From Myxococcota bacterium (GTDB taxonomy: Bacteria > Myxococcota > Myxococcia > Myxococcales > Myxococcaceae), in the NCBI GenBank assembly GCA_049322255.1, contig JBMORE010000152.1, forward strand, positions 49,080 to 69,079: DNA of 20,000 nucleotides, given 5' to 3'. The notes below the pieces were generated by a model. That model searched no databases. It saw nothing but the letters and a program-made list of their open reading frames with translations, and was not told where the DNA came from. Made by a program: the position numbers and the translations under genes. Shown piece after piece: positions 1 through 19,878 of this stretch; position 1 is the first letter of the stretch; every line of letters starts with the position of its first letter.

Positions 1-910
1 CTTTGTCCTTGCCGCGCTTCGCCATTTCGAGCGCACCAGCGGCGTCTCCTTCTTCGTACTTGGCGAGAATGACCGCCTTCTTCGGGGCCGGCTCTTCCTG
101 CTTGGCTTCGATCTTTTCGTCTTCCGCGGTGGTTTTGGCCACCAGGGGGCTCTTCTTCGAGGCGGCCACGGCGGGTGTGGGCTTGACGATGGGTTCAGGC
201 GGAGGTGGCCGCGGTGGCTCCGCCTCGCGCTCCTTCTCGGCCCGCTCGCGCTGAGGCGGGTCGTTGTCCCGAGCGGGCTTGGAAGGCTCGGCGGGTGGTT
301 GGGTCACGACCGGTGGCGCGTCGAGCTGCACCAAGGGGGGGCGAAGCTGCCCCTCCTGCTGGCTCGCCCCCGAGGGCAACTTGAGGAGGGCGAACATGAG
401 CACGCCGGCGAGGCCGAACCCCACCACGCCGGCAAAAATCGCCACCCGCATCGTCGAAGGGCCCTTGGGCGAGGGGCGAAAGACCCGATCGGTTGGTTCG
501 GCGCTCAAGAGCGCCGCCGAGCTCCTCTGGGGCTTGGGCCTGGCCGGCGCCCTGGTCTCCACCGGCGAACGGGACGGCGGCTCCGCCTCGTGCAGCTTGA
601 GCAGCGCGTTGCCCATCGCGATTTCATCACCTGGGTAAATCTCCATCTCGGCGGCGATCTTGGTCTTGTTGACGAAGGTGCCGTTCTGGCTGCCGAGGTC
701 TCGAATGTAGAAGCGGTTGCCGGTGCGGGTGAGCTGGGCGTGGCGACGGCTGATCGAGGGGTGCTTCAGCCGCAGGTCGGAGATCGACGCGCGGCCGATG
801 ACCACCGGCCCCTGCTTGACGGGGATGAGCTGCCCCGCGCCGGGCCCGCGCTCGACGTAGAGAAACCACGGATTCCCGCCGCGCGCGGGCTGGTCGTAGG
901 AAGGCGCCAT
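1..910 (-). CDS. FHA-domain single-pass membrane protein (3' end runs off the window; absent from the supplied ORF track)
   Basis: Manual translation from ATG at 910, which is directly preceded by an in-frame TAG: MAPSYDQ...VVIGRASISDLRLKHPSISRRHAQL...IRDLGSQNGTFVN, containing the FHA motifs GR, SxxH and DLGSxNGT. Then a hydrophobic segment VAIFAGVVGFGLAGVLMFALL and a Pro/Glu/Lys-rich linker. No stop before position 1. Confidence 0.9.
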   Translation of the reverse strand, partial: MAPSYDQPARGGNPWFLYVERGPGAGQLIPVKQGPVVIGRASISDLRLKHPSISRRHAQLTRTGNRFYIRDLGSQNGTFVNKTKIAAEMEIYPGDEIAMGNALLKLHEAEPPSRSPVETRAPARPKPQRSSAALLSAEPTDRVFRPSPKGPSTMRVAIFAGVVGFGLAGVLMFALLKLPSGASQQEGQLRPPLVQLDAPPVVTQPPAEPSKPARDNDPPQRERAEKEREAEPPRPPPPEPIVKPTPAVAASKKSPLVAKTTAEDEKIEAKQEEPAPKKAVILAKYEEGDAAGALEMAKRGKDK

Positions 911-6939: not shown

Positions 6940-9027
<2,088 letters not shown>

Positions 9028-9029
9028 TC

Positions 9030-10946
9030 ATGGACGCGGCCCTCGCCGAGAAGCTCGCCAACCTCCCCACCGCCCCGGGCGTCTACGTGATGAAGGACCG
9101 CGGCGGGGTGGTGATCTACGTCGGCAAGGCGGTGAACCTGCGCGCGCGGGTGCGCTCGTATTTTTCGCGCGCCTCCTCCGACAGCCGGGCGTTCGTCGGG
9201 CTGCTCCACGACCTTTTGGGCGACATCGACACGGTGGTGGTGTCGAACGAGAAAGAGGCGCTGCTTCTGGAGAACGAGCTCATCAAGCGTCACAAGCCGC
9301 GCTTCAACGTCCAGCTGCGGGACGACAAGAATTTCATCTGCGTAAGGCTCGATCTGTCGCACCCCTACCCCCGACTGGAGGTGGTGCGCCGCTTCAAGAA
9401 AGACGGCGCGCGGTACTTCGGCCCCTATTCCTCGGCGGGGGCGATTCGCGAGTCCTTGCGCATCATCAACCGCTACTTCCAGCTGCGCACCTGCTCGGAT
9501 CACGCGCTGGAGCATCGCCGCCGTCCGTGCCTGCTCTACCAGATCGGCCGCTGCCCGGCGCCGTGCGTCTACCCGATCGCCCCCGAGGAGTACCAAAAGA
9601 ACGTCGAGGCGGTGGTGCTCTTCCTCGAGGGCAAGGCAGGCGAGCTGGTCGACGGCCTGCGGACACGCATGAAGGCGGCGGCGAAGGAGCTGAAGTTCGA
9701 GGAGGCGGCCGCCTTGCGTGACCAGCTCGTCGCCCTCGAGCGCAGCCTGGAACGGCAGAAGATCGCCGTCATCGAGCCGATCGACCAAGACGTGTTCGGC
9801 TTCTACCGCGAGGCGGATCGGCTGCTCATCTACGCGCTCTACGTGCGGCAGGGGCGGCTCACCGGCGGCCAGCCCTTCTACTTCAGCGGGCAGGAGTTCC
9901 CCGACGACGAGCTGCTCCTCTCCTTCGTGAACCTCTACTACGATCATGACAACTTCGTTCCCAAGGAGGTGCTCCTGCCCTTCTCTCCCGGGGGGCTGGA
10001 GGCGCTGGGAGAGCTGCTCTCGGAGCGCAAGGGCGAGAAGGTGCGGGTGTGGGTGCCCAAGCGGGGGGAGAAGCTCGAGCTGTTGCAGATGAGCGTGAAG
10101 AACGCCGAGGCGGCGTTTCACGAGCGCCGGCGCAGCAAGGACGAGACGGCGGCCATTCTCGAGCGCTTGCGCCAAAAGCTTCATCTGGCACGGGTGCCTC
10201 GCCGCATGGAGTGCTTCGACGTCTCGCACTTTCAGGGCGCGAGCGTGGTGGCTTCGCAGGTGGCGATCACCGACGGAGAGCTCGACCGCGCGCGCTACCG
10301 CCGCTTCCAGGTGAAGACGGTCGCCGGAAACGACGACTTCGCCAGCATGTACGAGGTGGTCGGTCGGCGGGTGCGGCGAGGGGTGGTGGAGGACGATTTG
10401 CCCGACCTCATCGTCATCGACGGCGGCAAGGGGCAGCTCGCCTCGGCGCACGCGGCGATCCGCGACGCGGGCATCACCGGGGTGGACCTGGTGGCGCTGG
10501 CCAAGAGCCGCGATCTCGAGGTGGCCGATCGCGACGCGGCTTTCGCCAAGAGCCCCGAGCGCATCTTCCTCTTGGGGCGTAAAGACCCTGTGGTGCTGCC
10601 GCAGCGCTCGGCCGAGCTGTTCATGCTCACCCGCCTGCGCGACGAGGCGCATCGCTTCGCGATCACCTTCCAGCAAGCACGCATGCGGAAAATGAGCTTC
10701 GCCTCGGTGCTGGAGGACATTCCCGGAGTGGGGGCAGGACGAAAGCGCGCGCTCTTGCGGCACTTCGGCAGCCTTCGGCGCATTCAGAAGGCGTCGATCG
10801 AAGAGCTGGCCGACGTGGGTGGCGTGGGTCCGGCGGTGGCCGAGCGCATTCACGCTTTCCTCCACGGATCGGCCGAGCTCCTGGGCCGGGACGCGATTCG
10901 CGAAGCGTCGTTGGAAGACGCTTCGGGGTCCCCCGCCGAGGGGTGA
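9030..10946 (+). CDS. uvrC: Excinuclease ABC subunit C, 638 aa
   Basis: GIY-YIG domain (PGVYVMKD...[17 protein letters not shown]), four-Cys region, UVR domain, RNase H-like domain ([29 protein letters not shown]) and HhH ([13 protein letters not shown]). ATG 9030 follows the uvrB stop after a 2-nt gap. Confidence 0.98.
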
Positions 10947-12821: not shown

Positions 12822-13169
12822 ATGCGCAACGTCCAGCTCGTCTCCTCGCCCACGCCCTCGGGAGTCAACGATGCGGTGAAGGAGGCCGTCGATCGGCTGG
12901 AGCAGACGCTGCCGTCACGCGAGGACTGCGCGGTGCTGGCTGACTTCCTCGAAGACGACCTTCGCGAGGGGTTGGAGGCGCTGGAGGAGGTCGACGCGCA
13001 TTTTCACGACATCCTCGATGCGTTGCGGGAGGAGCGGCCCTCGCCGATTCGGCTCCTCGAGGCAAGCGACGACTTCCGGGTGCTCCGCCGGCTCGAGTAC
13101 TTGATGGTGGTGGTGTCACAGCTTCGGCGACGGCTCGCCCAGGCGGCGGGGAAGTTGAAAGAGCGGTAA
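12822..13169 (+). CDS. Small acidic alpha-helical hypothetical protein, 115 aa
   Basis: C-terminal part of ORF 12033..13169 from ATG 12822 (MRNVQLV...LEDDLREGLEALEEVDAHF...LRRRLAQAAGKLKER). It has helical periodicity and fills the gap between neighbouring genes. Confidence 0.8.
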   Translation: MRNVQLVSSPTPSGVNDAVKEAVDRLEQTLPSREDCAVLADFLEDDLREGLEALEEVDAHFHDILDALREERPSPIRLLEASDDFRVLRRLEYLMVVVSQLRRRLAQAAGKLKER

Positions 13170-13178
13170 CCTCGCACT

Positions 13179-14242
13179 TCACCACTTGAGGGTCTCTTTG
13201 CCCTGGGTGCGGGCCTTCTTGTCCCCGGGGCGGCTGAAGGCGGTGAGGGTGGCGCGGACGGCGCCCAAGTCGATCGAGCCCACCGCGGCGAGCGGCAGCC
13301 GGCGCTCGTCGGCGGAGATCCACACGTGGATCTCCCGGCGCCAGCGGTGATCATCGAGCCGCACCGCCTCGCCCGAAAGATGCCAGGCCGTAAGCTCGCC
13401 CAAAGGAGACGGGACGCGCTCCTTCCCCTCCACCTGGCCGCTCAAACGCCAGAGGCGGCGAATGCCGTAGACGTCGAAGCACACGGGCAGGCCTTCCTTC
13501 AGAGGCAGCTGGCGCATGAGGTAGATGGCGCCGGCGACGTCCAGCCCGTCGTGCGCGTAGCGGTACTCGCCCTGCCCCGAGGCGGCGCCGACGGTGTACC
13601 GCACCTTCACTTGGTTGCCCTTGGCGCGAAAGGCCACCTCGGCGGTCTTGCGCACCTCGTTCTCGGTGGAGTCCTCCAGGTAGCGGGTGGGGCGCAACGT
13701 CTTGGGGCTCAAGTAGCTCGTCGCCTGGCCCTTCACCCGTCGCACTTTGGAGAAGAAGGTGTTGGTCTGCGCGTGCACCTCGATGGGCAGCTGGCCGTCC
13801 TTTTGCGGCAAGACGCGCATGGTCATCTTNNNNNNNNNNNNNNNNNNNNNNNNNNNNNNNNNNNNNNNNNNNNNNNNNNNNNNNNNNNNNNNNNNNNNNN
13901 NNNNNNNNNNNNNNNNNNNNNNNNNNNNNTGGGGCTCAAGTAGCTCGTCGCCTGGCCCTTCACCCGTCGCACTTTGGAGAAGAAGGTGTTGGTCTGCGCG
14001 TGCACCTCGATGGGCAGCTGGCCGTCCTTTTGCGGCAAGACGCGCATGGTCATCTTCCCCGCTTGCGCCCCCATGGCGTCGAGGTCGAACTCGAGCACCT
14101 CGCCAGCGCCGAACGCCCAGGGCGCTTTCACCACCGGGAGCGGTCGGCATTGCGCGTCACTGGGCGGCGGTTTGGGAAGAGCAGGCGCCGGCGTCGAGGC
14201 CGCAGCGAACAAGGTGAGAGTAAGGAGCGCGTTCACCACCAT
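13179..14242 (-). CDS. DUF3108-family exported protein (278 aa once the assembly duplication is collapsed)
   Basis: ATG 14242 with GAGGT RBS and signal peptide MVVNALLTLTLFAAA. Motifs AFGAGEVLEFDLDAMGAQAG, PSPLGE and WISADERRLP. Removing the 100 N plus one 127-bp copy gives an uninterrupted 837-nt ORF. Confidence 0.8.
13703..14056. other. Scaffold gap (100 N, 13830-13929) flanked by an exact 127-bp direct duplication; assembly artefact
   Basis: 13703-13829 is identical to 13930-14056. Confidence 0.93.
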
Positions 14243-14290
14243 CGAGTGTACCTCGAAAGGAACGCCCACTCGGACGGCGGTCTCCAGCCG

Positions 14291-16003
14291 TTATTCGCTG
14301 GTCGCCATCTCATCTGACAGGTAGGCGGCCAGGCGCTCGCGCACCGCCTGCCACTCGCGAGGAGAATCGGTGATGTCGTAGCCAGAGCGCACCAGCCGGC
14401 GCACGCTCGCGCGGGCAAGCGAAGACGCACCGCGCCGTTGTGCCAAAGACAGCCACTCGAAGTCCTCCAAGCCGTCGCGGATGTGCTTGAGCCGCAAGGA
14501 CTCGATGGGGATGGGCGTCTGCCCTCCGATGCGGTCGGGCGTGCCTGGGTAGAAGAGGGTGCCATCGCCGTTGCCGCCGAAGGAGAGGACGCCCTCCCAC
14601 GGGTCGCTCTCGTGGAACTGGTAGACGGTGTCGAAGTACAGCTCGCCGTCGACGCCTGCCAGAAAAGCCAGCGGCCCCATCGCCCGGTTCCGGGCAGCGC
14701 TGTGGTCGACCATGTACGAAGCCCAGCGCGAGTACGCCCGCTCTACCTCCAAGTCCTCCACCGGCCCGAGGTCGCAGCCGTGGGCGTTGCAGCTCTGGTA
14801 CCACCAGACGCGTCGCCCATGTCCCAGCCGTGCGCGCAGCTCGTGGGGCGCAGTGACGCGGGGACACGTCGCGAGGCCTGTGCGGGGGAAAAAGCAGTTC
14901 AGCGTGGGGCAGAGGATGTCCGCCGCGTCCTTCAGCTCTTCGTCGAGGCCGGTCGTCACCAAGACGTCGATGCCCCCCGCCCGCCGCACGCGCGCCGCTT
15001 GCCGCTTCACCAGAGGGTAGTCCTCGGGAGCGGGCTCGTCCTTGGCGTAGAAGAACAGCCGCGCCTTCCAGCCCTTCTCTTGGAAGTGCTGCTGGAAAGC
15101 ACGGTAGTAGGCGACCTTTTCCTCTTCGGTCTTCGCCTGGGGTGAGTCGCGCACGTCGGAGGTGGTGAAGCGCGCGCCGGAGGGCAGGGCGGTGCCTTCG
15201 AGAAACGGCGCCATCTCGGCGTCGTAGGCGGTGAAGTCGACTCGGAGTTGCCCGCCCTCGAAGCTCACCTCGGGTGGCTCGATGCCCATGCCGTACGCCG
15301 AGAGCCGATGGGTGAGCAACGAGGTCGCGTAGCGGCGAAGGAGCACCCGCGCTTGGTCGCTCGTCCCGTCGACCTCGTGCCCGTGAGCGAGCGAGTAGAT
15401 GGAGATGCCGAAGCTGTTGGGCAGCGAGGAGGTCGCGGGCAAGGTGAAGGGAAGCACCTGGGCGGCCAGCTCGATGCGCTGCGCCCGCCGGCCCTTCGCG
15501 GTGAGGACGACCGCGCCCCGGTAGAGGCCGGGCTTTTGCGTCGCGGGAACACAGAGCTCGAGGTAGAGCACCAGCGGGCGCTCCTGGGTGGAGTCGTGCG
15601 GGAGCGCCGCTCGCCGCTCCTGGGTGTAGGCGTCGATGGCAGGAATGAGCGGATCAGGCCACAGCCCTGGGGCCCCCTCTGCGTTGGAGGGCACTTCGAC
15701 GGGCACGTAGCCCACGCGGTAGAGGCGCGCCAGCATCGCCGGGCCCGGTCCGGTGAGCGCTTCGAGGCGCGCATCGACTTTTTGGGCGGGAGGGGGAACG
15801 GCGAGTTGCACTGCCTCGCACTCCTGGCGCGCCACGAGCAGCTTCGCCGACGTCGAACCGCTCGGAACCTGCCCGGGGCGAATCTTTTCCAGGGCGCTGA
15901 CCGCGCCGGCCCAGGGTTTCGGTTCTGCGCGATGGGTGGCAGTGGCCCCAAGCAACACAGCGAACGAAAGGAATGTGGCGCTCATCGCGCCCACGCTGCG
16001 CAT
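14291..16003 (-). CDS. Secreted DUF4091-domain protein, putative GH123-like glycoside hydrolase
   Basis: Signal peptide (start at 16003 or 15985), an N-terminal beta-sandwich-like region (WPDPLIP, PGLYRG), a FYAKDEP acidic pair and WWYQSC. The C-terminal GNGDGTLFYPG...IESLRLKHIRDGLEDFEWL is characteristic of DUF4091. Confidence 0.78.
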   Translation of the reverse strand: MRSVGAMSATFLSFAVLLGATATHRAEPKPWAGAVSALEKIRPGQVPSGSTSAKLLVARQECEAVQLAVPPPAQKVDARLEALTGPGPAMLARLYRVGYVPVEVPSNAEGAPGLWPDPLIPAIDAYTQERRAALPHDSTQERPLVLYLELCVPATQKPGLYRGAVVLTAKGRRAQRIELAAQVLPFTLPATSSLPNSFGISIYSLAHGHEVDGTSDQARVLLRRYATSLLTHRLSAYGMGIEPPEVSFEGGQLRVDFTAYDAEMAPFLEGTALPSGARFTTSDVRDSPQAKTEEEKVAYYRAFQQHFQEKGWKARLFFYAKDEPAPEDYPLVKRQAARVRRAGGIDVLVTTGLDEELKDAADILCPTLNCFFPRTGLATCPRVTAPHELRARLGHGRRVWWYQSCNAHGCDLGPVEDLEVERAYSRWASYMVDHSAARNRAMGPLAFLAGVDGELYFDTVYQFHESDPWEGVLSFGGNGDGTLFYPGTPDRIGGQTPIPIESLRLKHIRDGLEDFEWLSLAQRRGASSLARASVRRLVRSGYDITDSPREWQAVRERLAAYLSDEMATSE

Positions 16004-16005
16004 CT

Positions 16006-16095
16006 CCCTCTCCCTTTGGGAGAGGGTAGGGGTGAGGGGTGTCAGATCGACGAATTCACGCCCTTCACCCTCGCCCTCTCCCAGAGGGAGAGGGG
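16006..16095. repeat. Inverted pair of boxC/REP-like repeats
   Basis: CCCTCTCCC-TTT-GGGAGAGGG-TAGGGGTGAGGGG (16006-16039) and its inverted counterpart CCCTTCACCCTCG-CCCTCTCCC-AGA-GGGAGAGGGG (16061-16095), with a 21-bp spacer. Confidence 0.88.
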
Positions 16096-16099
16096 TGAA

Positions 16100-16879
16100 T
16101 CAGGGGACATCGACGGCGGCGAGGCTTCGGCCCGGCTTGTAGTCGGTGAGGTCGGCGGTGATGCTGCCCACCAAGAACTCTGCTTCCACCCGCACCGGCA
16201 CGCGCGCCTCGTCGGTGGTGAGGTAGGCGTAGAGATCGCGCTTGGCGGCGAGCTTGCCGGAGAACTGGGTGGCCACCCGCACCTTGAACACATCGCGCTC
16301 GCCCAGCGGGGTGGACAGCTTCTGCACCCCCTCGACAGTGGCCTTGAGGATGAAGCTTCTCGCGCCGGTGAACACCGGCATCTCATGCGTCTGACCGATG
16401 GCGAGCGCCTTGTTGCGCAAGGCGAAGGTGACCGCCGCCATGTCCATGGAGAAGGGAGCGACCTCGTGGGTCTCCTCCACCTCGCTGGCGCCGTGGTTCT
16501 GCTTGGTCACGTGAGCGCTGGTGCCCTCGAGGCGAATGCGCTGGCGGCGGCGCTTGCGGTTCTCCTCGGCGAACAGGTCGCTCCCGATGGTTCTGTGCTC
16601 GGCGTGGTCCCAGTAGGTGACGAACTTGTCCTTGATGTCATAGAGCGCCCCCAATGACTCGCTCTTGGCCAGGGCGACGATGGGCCACACCGTGCGGCCC
16701 CAGTGCTGCATCTCCGAGCCGACGGTGATTTCGGCGGTGCCCGCGGTCATGCCCAAGAAGGCGACCTTGAAGGTCAGCTGCTCTCCTGGCCCGAAGGCGG
16801 ACCGGGGAGCGGCTTCGTTGGACGCCGAGGCTCCCATGCCAACGAGCATCGCTGAGGTCACTACCAAACGGCAGAGCAT
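16100..16879 (-). CDS. DUF3108-family exported protein, 259 aa
   Basis: ATG 16879 with GGAGA RBS and signal peptide MLCRLVVTSAMLVGMGASA. Motifs AFGPGEQLTFKVAFLGMTAG, STPLGE and YLTTDEARVPV. Clearly paralogous to 13179..14242. Confidence 0.82.
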   Translation of the reverse strand: MLCRLVVTSAMLVGMGASASNEAAPRSAFGPGEQLTFKVAFLGMTAGTAEITVGSEMQHWGRTVWPIVALAKSESLGALYDIKDKFVTYWDHAEHRTIGSDLFAEENRKRRRQRIRLEGTSAHVTKQNHGASEVEETHEVAPFSMDMAAVTFALRNKALAIGQTHEMPVFTGARSFILKATVEGVQKLSTPLGERDVFKVRVATQFSGKLAAKRDLYAYLTTDEARVPVRVEAEFLVGSITADLTDYKPGRSLAAVDVP

Positions 16880-16993
16880 GCGGGTGTCTCCAACGGCCTT
16901 CAGCGAGAGGGTAGGTGCGCGGTGGGGGTTGACGCCAGGCCCCTCCCTGGCATTCAAGGGGTGTACAATTGCCTACCTTTGGGAGTCATCCTC

Positions 16994-19144
16994 TTGGTCG
17001 CCCTCAACACCCAGACCCCCCGCCTGCCATTCCTGCCCGTATGCGGCCTGGTTGCCTGTCTGTGGGGGTGCCCAGGGCCGACGCCTCCGCCTCCTCCGGC
17101 GAAAATCCCCACCACCTACCGGATCATCTCCGGGGTCTCCATGGGCGGCTTAGGAGCTTCGGCGCTGGGGTTTTCCCGCCCCGAGCGCTTCGACGCCGTC
17201 GCCTCCCAAGGGGGGCCTTTCGACGCGGCGCTCTTGCTCCGCACCATCGACCGGTTCCACCTGGCGGGCTTTTGCACCCTCGCCGAGCTCGAGGCCATCG
17301 CCGCCCGTGACCCTTCGCTGCTCAACGACCCCAAAGAAATCTCCCTGTGCGCCCGGCGGACCCCGAACATCGCCAACGAGCGCTCGCAGGACTTCAACCA
17401 CTGGGTCTACACCACCAACGGCGGAGACTTCGAGCGGGACAAGTACAGCGACCTCTTCAGCGACCTCACTCTGGCGTACGGCAATGTCCTCTACGAAAAC
17501 CCTGAGTCGGCCTTCGCGCCGCCGGGAGTGCCGGTGGAATGGGCGCGTCATCCTCCCGCCGATGCGTGCCAAACCCCGGTGCGCCTCCAAGGCTTCAAGA
17601 ACGCCGAGTACAACCCCCAGGGCACCTACGACGTCATCACCTTTTGCGACCAGCAGCAGCGGCTCTTCTTCTGCCGCGGCAACATGGAGCCGGTCGATTT
17701 CTGCTCCGATCCAGCCAACGTGCGCACCCCGCTGCCGATGGCTCAGGAGGAGACCTTCGCCGCCGCCTACTGCGCCACCCAGGGCGGCTTTGCGCAGGCC
17801 ACGAAAGACAGCCAACCGCTCTACATGCTGAACCATGCGGGCGTCTTCGACCCCTGCCGCGAATCGACCCTCCCCCTGGTGGTGGCCTTGGCGGTGGACA
17901 TCAACGGCAACGGCCGGCGCGACTACGGGGAGCCGGTCGTCAACAACGGCTGGGAGCGCTTCGACGACGTCGGCGCCGACGGCTGTGCCGATGGGTTCGA
18001 AGACGGCAGCGGAGGTTGTCTTCCCACCGCCAACGGGGGCGGCGCCGACCCCAACGGCGACAACTACGACGCCGACTCGAACCCCCACGGCACCGAGAGC
18101 AACTGGACCTGGGAGGAGGGCGAGCCCTACCGCGACTTCGGGCTCGATGGGGTGCCGGGGACCTCCGACGTCGGCGAAGGCAACGGCCAGTACGACATGA
18201 GCTCGGGCCGGCGCGCCATGTTCGCGATGGATTCACGCACCCACCTGCGCAAGATGTCACCCGAGGCGCGCGCGCGCATCGACGTGCTCGCCGACGGCGG
18301 CATTCGCGACCTGTTCAACTTCGGGCTCATGGCCAGGCAGGTCTTCGGCCTGTTGCGCTCCTACCGCACGACGCCCACCGGCAGCTACCGGGACTTCATC
18401 GAGATTCCGGGCATGACCGACCGCCGCACCGGCAACTTCAGCCCTTGGAACCAGCGGTGGAAAACGGTGCCGCGCGATCTGCTCATGGTCTACGGCAAGG
18501 AGAACCCGACCGACGAGGACCGAGTGGAGGGAGAGGGCGACCACGTGGGAACGGCGCTACAGGCTGCGAGCCGCTTCTACACCCTGTTCAATTGGGCAGC
18601 GGCCACCTACCCCAACCTCGAGCGGCCGTCGACGCCGCTGGGAGGCGCGTCGGCGAGCGAGCGTCAGAAGGTGATCTGGTACGACTCGGCGTTGCTCGGC
18701 GCCAAGCGGGAGTACGGCATCTCGCTGCCCCCGGGCTACGACCTGCCCGAGAACCAAGACAAGCGCTACCCGGTGCTCTACCTCTTGCACGGCTATGGAA
18801 TGGACCCCAGGAGCTTCATGGCCACTTCCCTGATCACCGACACCTACGTCACCGATCCCGACGTGAAGCTGCGGCCGATGATTCTCGTCTTCCCCAGCGG
18901 CCGGTGTTGCTTCGTCCACCTGGCGAGCGGAGCGAGGGACTGCCGGGAGACCGACGACGACGGCGTCGACTTGAGCGACCTGCCGGGCTGGGAGCGCGAG
19001 TGCCACAAGGGCAATTTCTACGTCAACCGCCAAGGCTTTTTTCGGGGTGATGAGCGAGCATACGGCGACGCCTTCTTCGAGCTGATGGAGTACATCGATC
19101 AGAACTACCGCACCGTCCCCGCTGCCGAGGTGGAGGCCCGTTGA
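16994..19144 (+). CDS. Lipoprotein, alpha/beta-hydrolase esterase family (PF00756-like), with permuted motif order and a large insertion
   Basis: Lipobox LWG-C (Cys codon 17069) and a Pro linker. GVSMGG nucleophile elbow, DGGIRD, GEGDH, and C-terminal LPPGY...RYPVLYLLHGYG...PMILVFP...ELMEYIDQNYRT. The start is uncertain; TTG 16994 was chosen for its GGGAG SD 8 nt upstream. Confidence 0.82.
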   Translation: MVALNTQTPRLPFLPVCGLVACLWGCPGPTPPPPPAKIPTTYRIISGVSMGGLGASALGFSRPERFDAVASQGGPFDAALLLRTIDRFHLAGFCTLAELEAIAARDPSLLNDPKEISLCARRTPNIANERSQDFNHWVYTTNGGDFERDKYSDLFSDLTLAYGNVLYENPESAFAPPGVPVEWARHPPADACQTPVRLQGFKNAEYNPQGTYDVITFCDQQQRLFFCRGNMEPVDFCSDPANVRTPLPMAQEETFAAAYCATQGGFAQATKDSQPLYMLNHAGVFDPCRESTLPLVVALAVDINGNGRRDYGEPVVNNGWERFDDVGADGCADGFEDGSGGCLPTANGGGADPNGDNYDADSNPHGTESNWTWEEGEPYRDFGLDGVPGTSDVGEGNGQYDMSSGRRAMFAMDSRTHLRKMSPEARARIDVLADGGIRDLFNFGLMARQVFGLLRSYRTTPTGSYRDFIEIPGMTDRRTGNFSPWNQRWKTVPRDLLMVYGKENPTDEDRVEGEGDHVGTALQAASRFYTLFNWAAATYPNLERPSTPLGGASASERQKVIWYDSALLGAKREYGISLPPGYDLPENQDKRYPVLYLLHGYGMDPRSFMATSLITDTYVTDPDVKLRPMILVFPSGRCCFVHLASGARDCRETDDDGVDLSDLPGWERECHKGNFYVNRQGFFRGDERAYGDAFFELMEYIDQNYRTVPAAEVEAR

Positions 19145-19653
19145 AGGACGACGAGCACGACTTCACGCCGGTGACACGGGTGGGCGTTCGGCGGGTCGAT
19201 GCCGCCGAGCTGGTTTTGCAGGACGAGGTGCTCAACAAATGCGTGCTGGTGACGGCCCTCGGCCCCGAGCGTGCGGGGGCGCTGCTCCGGCTGGGGTTGG
19301 CCCGTCGCTACCCGGACAAGGCGGTGGTGTTTCGACAGGAGGAGGGAGGCGACTCGCTCTTCTTGGTGCTGCGCGGCGAGACGCGGCTGTTCGTACGCGA
19401 GGGAAGCGACTCCATCGAGCTGGGCGCGGTCAGCAAGGGCGAGGTCTTCGGAGAGGGGGAGGTTCTCTCCGAGGGAGGCGTGCGATCGTCCTCGGTGATC
19501 GCTGCCAGCGAGCTCGACGTGCTCGAGCTGCCGCGCAAGAGGGTGCGTGAGGCGGCCGAAGATTGCCCCGAGCTTTTGGTTCAGTTGCAGGCGCTGCGCG
19601 ACAAGCGCCAAGCCGCGCTCGAGGAGATGGCCAGCTTTCTCAACCGTTGGTGA
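19141..19653 (+). CDS. Stand-alone cyclic-nucleotide-binding domain protein (no HTH)
   Basis: VVFRQEEGGDSLFLVLRG...GEVFGEGEVL...RSSSVIA matches a cNMP beta-roll with the FGE and R of the phosphate-binding cassette. The TTG start overlaps the upstream TGA (TTGA). Confidence 0.85.
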   Translation: MKDDEHDFTPVTRVGVRRVDAAELVLQDEVLNKCVLVTALGPERAGALLRLGLARRYPDKAVVFRQEEGGDSLFLVLRGETRLFVREGSDSIELGAVSKGEVFGEGEVLSEGGVRSSSVIAASELDVLELPRKRVREAAEDCPELLVQLQALRDKRQAALEEMASFLNRW

Positions 19654-19665
19654 GGAGACGAAGCG

Positions 19666-19878
19666 ATGCCGGTCGACCAGCACTACGACGAGAGCGACGA
19701 GAAGGAAGAGGCGGGCGGCCCGCGCTCCTTCAAAGAGTTCGACTGCCCCAGCTGCAACGCCAACAACCCCGTGGGCGAGCCCTTCAGCGATGGCGATGAG
19801 GTGCTGTGCAACTACTGCGGCAGTGAGTACCGGGTCATCGTCAGCGACGAGGGGCGGCTGCGGTTGAAGGAGATCTAG
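19666..19878 (+). CDS. Small acidic zinc-ribbon protein, 70 aa
   Basis: GAGGAG RBS. FDCPSCNANN...VLCNYCGSEY gives two CxxC knuckles. Confidence 0.82.
   Translation: MPVDQHYDESDEKEEAGGPRSFKEFDCPSCNANNPVGEPFSDGDEVLCNYCGSEYRVIVSDEGRLRLKEI

Follow-up and report, generated by a model that had tools for sequence, protein, structure and literature searches.

The gene at positions 16994..19144 (+) of the stretch analysed here (the window: 20,000 nucleotides from a Myxococcota bacterium of the family Myxococcaceae, assembly GCA_049322255.1, contig JBMORE010000152.1, positions 49,080 to 69,079 of the forward strand) very probably encodes a lipoprotein with a natural circular permutation of the PF00756/CE1 fold; the protein is predicted to be an extracytoplasmic esterase with Ser49, Asp439 and His517 as its triad. 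The initial annotation had suggested that the fold was opened in the loop before the nucleophile strand and that its two halves were swapped; the Pfam matches, the comparisons with Protein Data Bank (PDB) sequences, the hhalign alignments and an in silico re-permutation all agree with this. Residue numbers follow the public gene call P0001 (716 amino acids (aa), TTG start at 16994), which is 100% identical to our translation, unless the 740-aa frame is stated; the latter is the enclosing open reading frame (ORF) at 16922..19144 (+), counted from a GTG.

The coding sequence, taken from the ORF list, runs on the + strand from the TTG to a TGA at 19142-19144, and a Shine-Dalgarno-like GGGAG (16981..16985, +; read directly from the sequence) lies 8 nucleotides (nt) 5' of the start. 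The features described in the following are all on the same strand. The signal peptide (16994..17071) contains the lipobox L-W-G-C26 (an L-V-A-C22 is also present) and is followed by a Pro-rich tether, PGPTPPPPPAK (17072..17104), for which the predicted local distance difference test (pLDDT) of the structural model is low (47-59). Signal peptide and lipobox were called by eye and by regular expression; all 31 aligned homologues with sequence at this column have Cys26, the lipobox-like expression matches 25 of 38, and the protein is predicted to be a lipid-anchored bacterial lipoprotein. The N-block (17105..17212; PF00756, 7xrt and P0169 matches as well as DSSP) consists of beta5, the nucleophile elbow GVS49MGG, alphaC and beta6, and a lid insert with a length of 358 aa separates beta6 from beta7 (17213..18286; invariant columns and models), with 10 invariant Cys and acidic/Gly-rich loops. 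The part from beta7 to alphaF (18287..18628; invariance and DSSP) holds the predicted acid Asp439 (DGGIRD) and the predicted base His517 (GEGDHVG), while the C-block (18629..19141; PF00756, hidden Markov model (HMM), 7xrt and P0169 matches) comprises beta1-beta4, the H599-G600 oxyanion loop, a Cys-rich insert, alphaB (FFELMEYIDQNYRT) and a 9-residue tail. The N-terminus reads MVALNTQTPRLPFLPVCGLVACLWGC, next PGPTPPPPPAKIP and next TTYRIISGVS49MGG, with TTYRIISGVSMGG, which contains Ser49, coming directly after the lipobox and the Pro linker; the C-terminus reads ...FFELMEYIDQNYRTVPAAEVEAR and is closed by the TGA 9 codons past NYRT, the final residue being the invariant Arg716. The codons of Ser49, Asp439 and His517 start at 17138, 18308 and 18542, exactly where the initial annotation had located its Ser, Asp and His motifs, and His599-Gly600 occupies 18788-18793.

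All Pfam and NCBIfam matches of the protein are to PF00756-type families. PF00756, the putative esterase family of esterase D, CE1 feruloyl esterases, Fes and antigen 85, reaches a whole-protein score of 34.3 bits (E 2.8e-08; gathering cut-off 22 bits) that is split over two stretches, with profile positions 115-151 matching residues 65-101 of the 740-aa frame (41-77 of P0001) and profile positions 1-46 matching a C-terminal stretch at about 565-614 of P0001. A motif search had been expected to annotate one half only, an expectation that failed, as Pfam reports both halves. P0001 departs from the collinear PF00756 order (beta1-4 with the HG loop, nucleophile strand, Asp, His); the G-x-S-x-G-G elbow and the HG after beta3 are both present (GVS49MGG and LLH599GYG) and align with 7xrt and P0169. 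The C-terminal 170 residues resemble the N-terminal half of PF00756/CE1 feruloyl esterases, and the N-terminal 35 residues resemble the nucleophile strand that directly follows this half in the same enzymes.

The best PDB sequence matches of the protein are likewise CE1 feruloyl esterases. The family profile matches 7xrt_A with E 2.3e-15, and residues 26-105, 117-140 and 142-188 of this chain fall on profile positions 545-626, 675-697 and 28-74, respectively, from which it follows that the last residue of ..TYRV and the first of ESRYRAISGLSMGG, adjacent in the canonical enzyme, have their counterparts at the C- and the N-terminus of our protein. Opposite Ser49, 7xrt has the Ser that is mutated in its S150A variant 7xrv. 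BLASTP against the canonical protein P0169 placed residues 561-710 on 133-256 (E 3e-16, 32% identity) and residues 43-81 on 260-294, and the closest canonical relatives of the C-block are CBM48 plus PF00756 proteins of ~377 aa, with 32-34% identity across 87% of the block. When the family alignment A1 (38 sequences) was compared by hhalign with 20 canonical PF00756 domains taken from related genomes, columns 565-714 aligned with 1-119 (prob 94.2, E 1.2e-7) and columns 41-74 with 117-150 (prob 90.4, E 1.4e-6). By these alignments the out-of-order PF00756 match is far beyond chance, and they put the break point precisely into the loop that canonically links alphaB (..NYRT) to the nucleophile strand.

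For the re-permutation, an HMM was built from the 20 canonical PF00756 domains and the halves of the protein were re-ordered in silico. Against the native protein the canonical HMM gave two out-of-order matches: residues 42-74 matched hmm 123-155 with 18.7 bits, and residues 565-713 matched hmm 1-123 with 15.2 bits. Against the re-permuted protein it gave one collinear match over hmm 1-155 (39.8 bits), as had been predicted. A wider set of 49 members, made of 16 distant loci and of those 33 of the 38 A1 rows with sequence at the Ser column, behaved in the same way: the out-of-order pair was found in 36 of 49 in native order and a single spanning match in 39 of 49 after re-permutation, and the median best-domain score rose from 16.7 to 33.6 bits.

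With the 38-sequence alignment as input, AlphaFold2 gave a model (mean pLDDT 90.8, predicted template modelling score (pTM) 0.88) with the strand order beta5-6-7-8-1-2-3-4. According to DSSP, the N-block of the model contains beta5 (43-48), Ser49, alphaC (50-61) and beta6 (68-72) and then continues into the long insert; the middle part contains beta7 (430-436), alphaE (443-457), beta8 (496-500) and alphaF (521-536), and the C-block beta1-2 (558-577), beta3 (594-598), beta4 (630-634), alphaB (690-704) and a short strand (711-713). The top VIA-align match is 2d80_A, with Z 16.0, a root mean square deviation of 3.6 A and 232 aligned residues (model 40..706 to chain 30..338), whereas canonical alpha/beta-hydrolases cover just 36..545 (with their C-terminal halves) or 549..710 (with their N-terminal halves) at Z <=9.4. 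In a Foldseek-independent search of 48,161 PDB representatives, only 2d81_A spanned both blocks (Z 15.9; next 9.6), and in Foldseek itself 2d81 and 2d80 rank second and third, with the longest alignments. Of the two parts taken separately, model region 39..543 superposes on the C-terminal half of 1jt2 (Z 9.4-9.6) and model region 549..710 on 8bbp/6rzn 125..262 (Z 8.2-8.3). As one piece (40..706), the model can be laid over a hydrolase with a single domain, in line with the proposal of one alpha/beta core. The nucleophile of 2D80 is given as S39 (PMC7034887), which would fit the pairing of model residue 40 with chain residue 30, and hence Ser49 with Ser39, if the stretch is ungapped.

Compared with PF00756/CE1 enzymes (7XRT BT_4077, 8BBP wtsFae1B, 6RZN, 1JJF XynZ and the CBM48-CE1 protein P0169), both blocks are significantly similar in sequence and each half superposes on the matching CE1-type half (Z 8-9.6). 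Common to both are the GxSMGG elbow, the YPVLYLLHG oxyanion strand, PMIxVxP (beta4) and the helix ending in NYRT. The product of our gene differs from them in that the halves are swapped, with the cut in the 3-residue loop between ..NYRT and R-x-I-x-G-x-S-M-G-G, in two inserts, a lid of 358 residues that follows beta6 and a Cys-rich one that follows beta4, and in its lipoprotein anchor, where the CE1 enzymes have a CBM48 or dockerin context; its Asp/His half is not alignable to them by sequence.

The order is conserved across hundreds of myxobacterial relatives, which answers the question whether homologues share it: they do, in many independent assemblies. In A1, Ser49 is present in 33 of the 33 rows that cover it (in the other 5 rows the gene call begins only with the Met of SMG), D439 and H517 in 38 of 38 each, Gly600 is invariant, H599 is found in 37 of 38, and no residue lies beyond Arg716 in any of the 38 rows. 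All 28 translated loci are collinear, and in 16 of 16 distant loci the motifs GxSMG, G[IV]RD, HVG and HGxG are all kept, with the stop <=15 residues past YR[TV]. A word-indexed search returned 689 relatives, the best 120 of which have 665-751 aa and 90-100% coverage; those named among these 120 are Myxococcaceae, Archangium or Myxococcota metagenome-assembled genomes (MAGs). In a whole-genome search of 301 genomes from the phylum, 112 (in 71 of 137 genera) had a match to the family, 101 of them at E 1e-18 or better and the remaining 11 with weak matches that may be other esterases. An exhaustive search of 1.84 billion representatives yielded 121 clusters (50% identity) at E 1e-30 or better. 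Of 150 representatives listed for the clusters, 147 were analysed, the 3 left out being short fragments. Both model ends are spanned by 67 of the 147, and 66 of these 67 are collinear, just as 66 of 67 have tails of <=29 residues. A collection scan gave 141 relatives, the best 80 of which are all labelled as myxobacterial-type MAGs; its patterns were drawn from the lid, so it says nothing on lid-less relatives.

The family also varies in length. About half of the 67 full-span representatives carry N-terminal extensions of 150-318 aa, and in the 14 representatives scanned these gave no Pfam match, PF00756 included. P0272, P0287, P0310, P0324, P0276 and P0322 are distant representatives of 800-1100 aa with 150-318 extra residues before the nucleophile block, and P0276 carries six DUF4215 repeats. 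Shorter representatives (495-582 aa) have a signal peptide and GxSMG at residues 40-54, and in P0371 and P0381 YR[TV] lies 4-5 residues from the end. ESM Atlas also flagged clusters from other phyla, with lengths of 505 aa and 413 aa. Two family copies lie <6 kb apart at G192:C5:9141-11249 and 12845-14953 and again at G157:C62:11859-14009 and 14437-16587; the scores of the G192 pair are identical, and G192 and G157 are genomes from one and the same taxonomic order. Four family matches contain one in-frame TGA or TAG (G186:C1:1919456-1921528, G180:C71:2542-4596, G178:C99:3107-5173 and G005:C122:29086-30963) and could be pseudogenes or sequencing errors. Candidate split forms were rejected, since the 23 best short C-block matches are fragments, and P0124, P0127 and P0131, on longer contigs, look like truncated gene calls starting at an internal Met.

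In the proposed mechanism, the chain would start at beta5 with Ser49 on the elbow, leave the core after beta6 for the lid and return at beta7, so that Asp439 would follow beta7 and His517 beta8; it would then continue through beta1-beta4, where the His599-Gly600 loop after beta3, together with the backbone NH of Met50, would complete the oxyanion hole, and the C-terminal tail would end beside the N-terminal strand. Cys26 and the Pro-rich linker would tether the enzyme to a membrane. Ser49, Asp439 and His517 are the predicted catalytic residues, the latter two from their invariance and their position after beta7 and beta8. As a guess, the substrate might be ester bonds on bulky or polymeric material, e.g., acylated polysaccharide or polyester.

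The lid (residues 74-431) exits the core after beta6, the usual lid site of alpha/beta-hydrolases as described in PMC11878206, and re-enters it at beta7. Ten of its Cys are invariant in the close family, while the columns most conserved across the phylum are in acidic/Gly-rich loops: D302, R309, E313, P314, D325 and G327, and further E377, D381, G383, D385-G-V387, D392 and G394-E-G396. The loop motif D302-x-N-x-N-G-x-x-D-x-x-E313 is part of this pattern, and the acidic loops may resemble the Ca2+ loops of EF-hands and of the DxDxDG type. The lid would be stabilised by disulfides and probably by Ca2+. Folded alone, it reached a pLDDT of 91.0, and searches with it returned little: against 48,161 PDB chains (VIA) 2 chains reached Z 2, the best at Z 2.3, the best Foldseek match had E 0.16, and there was neither a Pfam match nor a usable ESM Atlas match. 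The predicted lid would thus have no known structural relative, although poor or absent matches are no proof that its fold is new. The second insert, after beta4, has four invariant Cys (C638, C639, C650 and C670), of which C638-C639 are vicinal.

A permutation of this kind is already known, as follows from the published topology of type-2 polyhydroxybutyrate (PHB) depolymerases. The PHB depolymerase of Penicillium funiculosum is described as a circular permutant in which strands beta1-4 have been relocated from the N-terminal to the C-terminal end (PMC3531081). In the PHA Depolymerase Engineering Database, a type-2 catalytic domain is one with its oxyanion element C-terminal to the triad, and the P. 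funiculosum enzyme is counted among these (PMC2666664); a canonical bacterial PHBase is reported to superpose on 2D80 despite the different topology (PMC9601781). We therefore weighed whether the protein could be a very diverged member of the type-2 lineage, i.e., a polyester depolymerase that inherited the same ancient permutation as P. funiculosum PhaZ, and consider this improbable. It shares with the type-2 domains the sequence order lipase box, Asp, His, oxyanion His (S49, D439, H517 and H599; order from PMC2666664) and a nucleophile ~10-25 residues into the mature chain, and PhaZ (2D80/2D81; type-2, NF050059) is its best and only collinear structural match, superposed on the predicted model over 232-237 residues at Z 16. 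True type-2 domains of Myxococcota, with 352-372 bits against NF050059 in 3 of 301 phylum genomes (loci L065, L066 and L067), are laid out similarly, with GxSxG at residues 13-14 and HG at 226-229. Against this, identity in the structural alignment with 2D80, a protein of 318 residues without a large lid, is 12-13% and no sequence relationship is detectable: NF050059 (cut-off 280 bits), run against the protein and against its genome, did not match the gene at E up to 10, and neither did the family profile match the 2d80 sequence at E up to 10. Hhalign of A1 with the three true type-2 domains aligned the nucleophile elbow only (35 columns, prob 9.4), compared with prob 90-94 for both blocks to canonical PF00756, and the C-block shares the 32-34% identity over 87% with CE1 esterases given above. 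The three genomes with a true type-2 enzyme (G083, G179 and G208) all carry the permuted family too, which indicates that the two are distinct genes. Since both blocks are PF00756/CE1-like by sequence, the permutation probably arose separately from the type-2 event, at an equivalent loop.

That the fold is kept in a non-enzymatic lipoprotein, with a binding or structural role played through the large lid, seems very unlikely to us. The lid exceeds the catalytic core in size, its acidic loops are what is most conserved phylum-wide, and one homologue is without His599; pseudoenzymes, on the other hand, usually lose their catalytic residues, and here Ser, Asp and His are invariant in 33 of 33 or 38 of 38 close and in 16 of 16 distant sequences and the HG loop is kept in 53 of 54. 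An artefact, either an assembly mis-join or a tandem duplication truncated before a second nucleophile domain, has practically no likelihood: beyond the unusual order itself nothing speaks for it, the same order and ends recur in many independent assemblies, and the next gene downstream encodes a cNMP-binding protein. A second GxSxG domain after NYRT, which the initial annotation had named as grounds for abandoning its proposal, was absent from the homologues examined. Tandem or unpermuted intermediates were not found: a search for proteins of 1254-3580 aa returned none, which is weak evidence, and among the 147 representatives P0322 is the sole one with a long tail and this tail holds DUF7450 repeats and no esterase half; in 0 of 14 long representatives did the best PF00756 stretch with profile 1-115 lie ahead of the nucleophile.

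Several points count against the permuted esterase as we read it, or against parts of that reading. The Asp439/His517 half has no significant sequence alignment to a canonical enzyme (the third hhalign match has prob 1.6), and the homologue P0029 has a Pro at the position of His599. The putative Ca2+ binding of the lid is deduced from EF-hand-like and DxDxDG-like motifs, the gene neighbourhood gives no clue to the substrate, and independence from the type-2 event is argued from undetectable sequence similarity, which would also be expected from very old common descent. In its widest form, the proposal is that of a second independent permutation (beta1-4 behind beta8) within PF00756/CE1, founding a large undescribed family (121 clusters) with a 358-residue lid of new fold, rich in disulfides and Ca2+ loops, and probably with a new polymer substrate; as a whole, we give this slightly less than an even chance.

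Natural circular permutations of the alpha/beta-hydrolase core are, to our knowledge, rare. The literature that was searched, with subscription journals outside its coverage, names one such case, the P. funiculosum PHB depolymerase with the type-2 domains, solved in that enzyme only, and describes no permuted esterase D, CE1 or myxobacterial esterase. A second case would be a natural test of where the alpha/beta-hydrolase fold tolerates new termini, and if the second permutation was indeed independent, nature would have opened the fold repeatedly at the loop that precedes the nucleophile strand. The family described here, which seems independent of the type-2 case and is much larger, goes back by sequence to ordinary CE1/esterase-D enzymes and has its cut in the same loop. 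There is also a problem of annotation, as the family owes its PF00756 assignment to two weak partial matches and has no Pfam or NCBIfam model of its own. As a widespread predicted surface or periplasmic esterase of myxobacteria, with an unexplored lid, it would be worth screening for substrates of the polysaccharide ester and polyester kinds.

On its upstream side, the esterase gene adjoins a divergent DUF3108 gene (16100-16957, -), beyond which lie a gene for a GH123-like exported protein of 570 aa (14291-16003, -; PF13320, E 3.7e-10) and another DUF3108 gene (13179-14150, -), followed further out by uvrB and uvrC (6940-10946, +). The order uvrB-uvrC, DUF3108, esterase is kept in the same-family genomes of L068-L070, and in L069 and L070 the two DUF3108 genes lack the intervening GH123-like gene. 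A divergent DUF3108 gene adjoins the esterase gene in 7 of the 11 same-family loci examined as well as in L068-L070 and is 2-4 kb away in G208 and G186; the other 7 of 12 regions examined, from more distant genomes, have none in the 6.5 kb upstream. A functional link between DUF3108 and the esterase was rejected and the arrangement read as plain synteny.

Downstream, an ORF for a cyclic nucleotide monophosphate (cNMP)-binding protein (19141-19653, +) overlaps the esterase stop with its TTG (cgTTGA). A terminator-like hairpin of 9 pairs followed by TGGTTTTGCA (19186-19210, +) starts 42 nt past the stop, so that the cNMP gene may in fact begin further downstream; terminator-like sites are as frequent in shuffled sequence, with 2 found against 1.7 expected. 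The next ORF (19666-19878, +; 70 aa, no Pfam match) has a CPxC...CxxC spacing and looks zinc-ribbon-like by eye.

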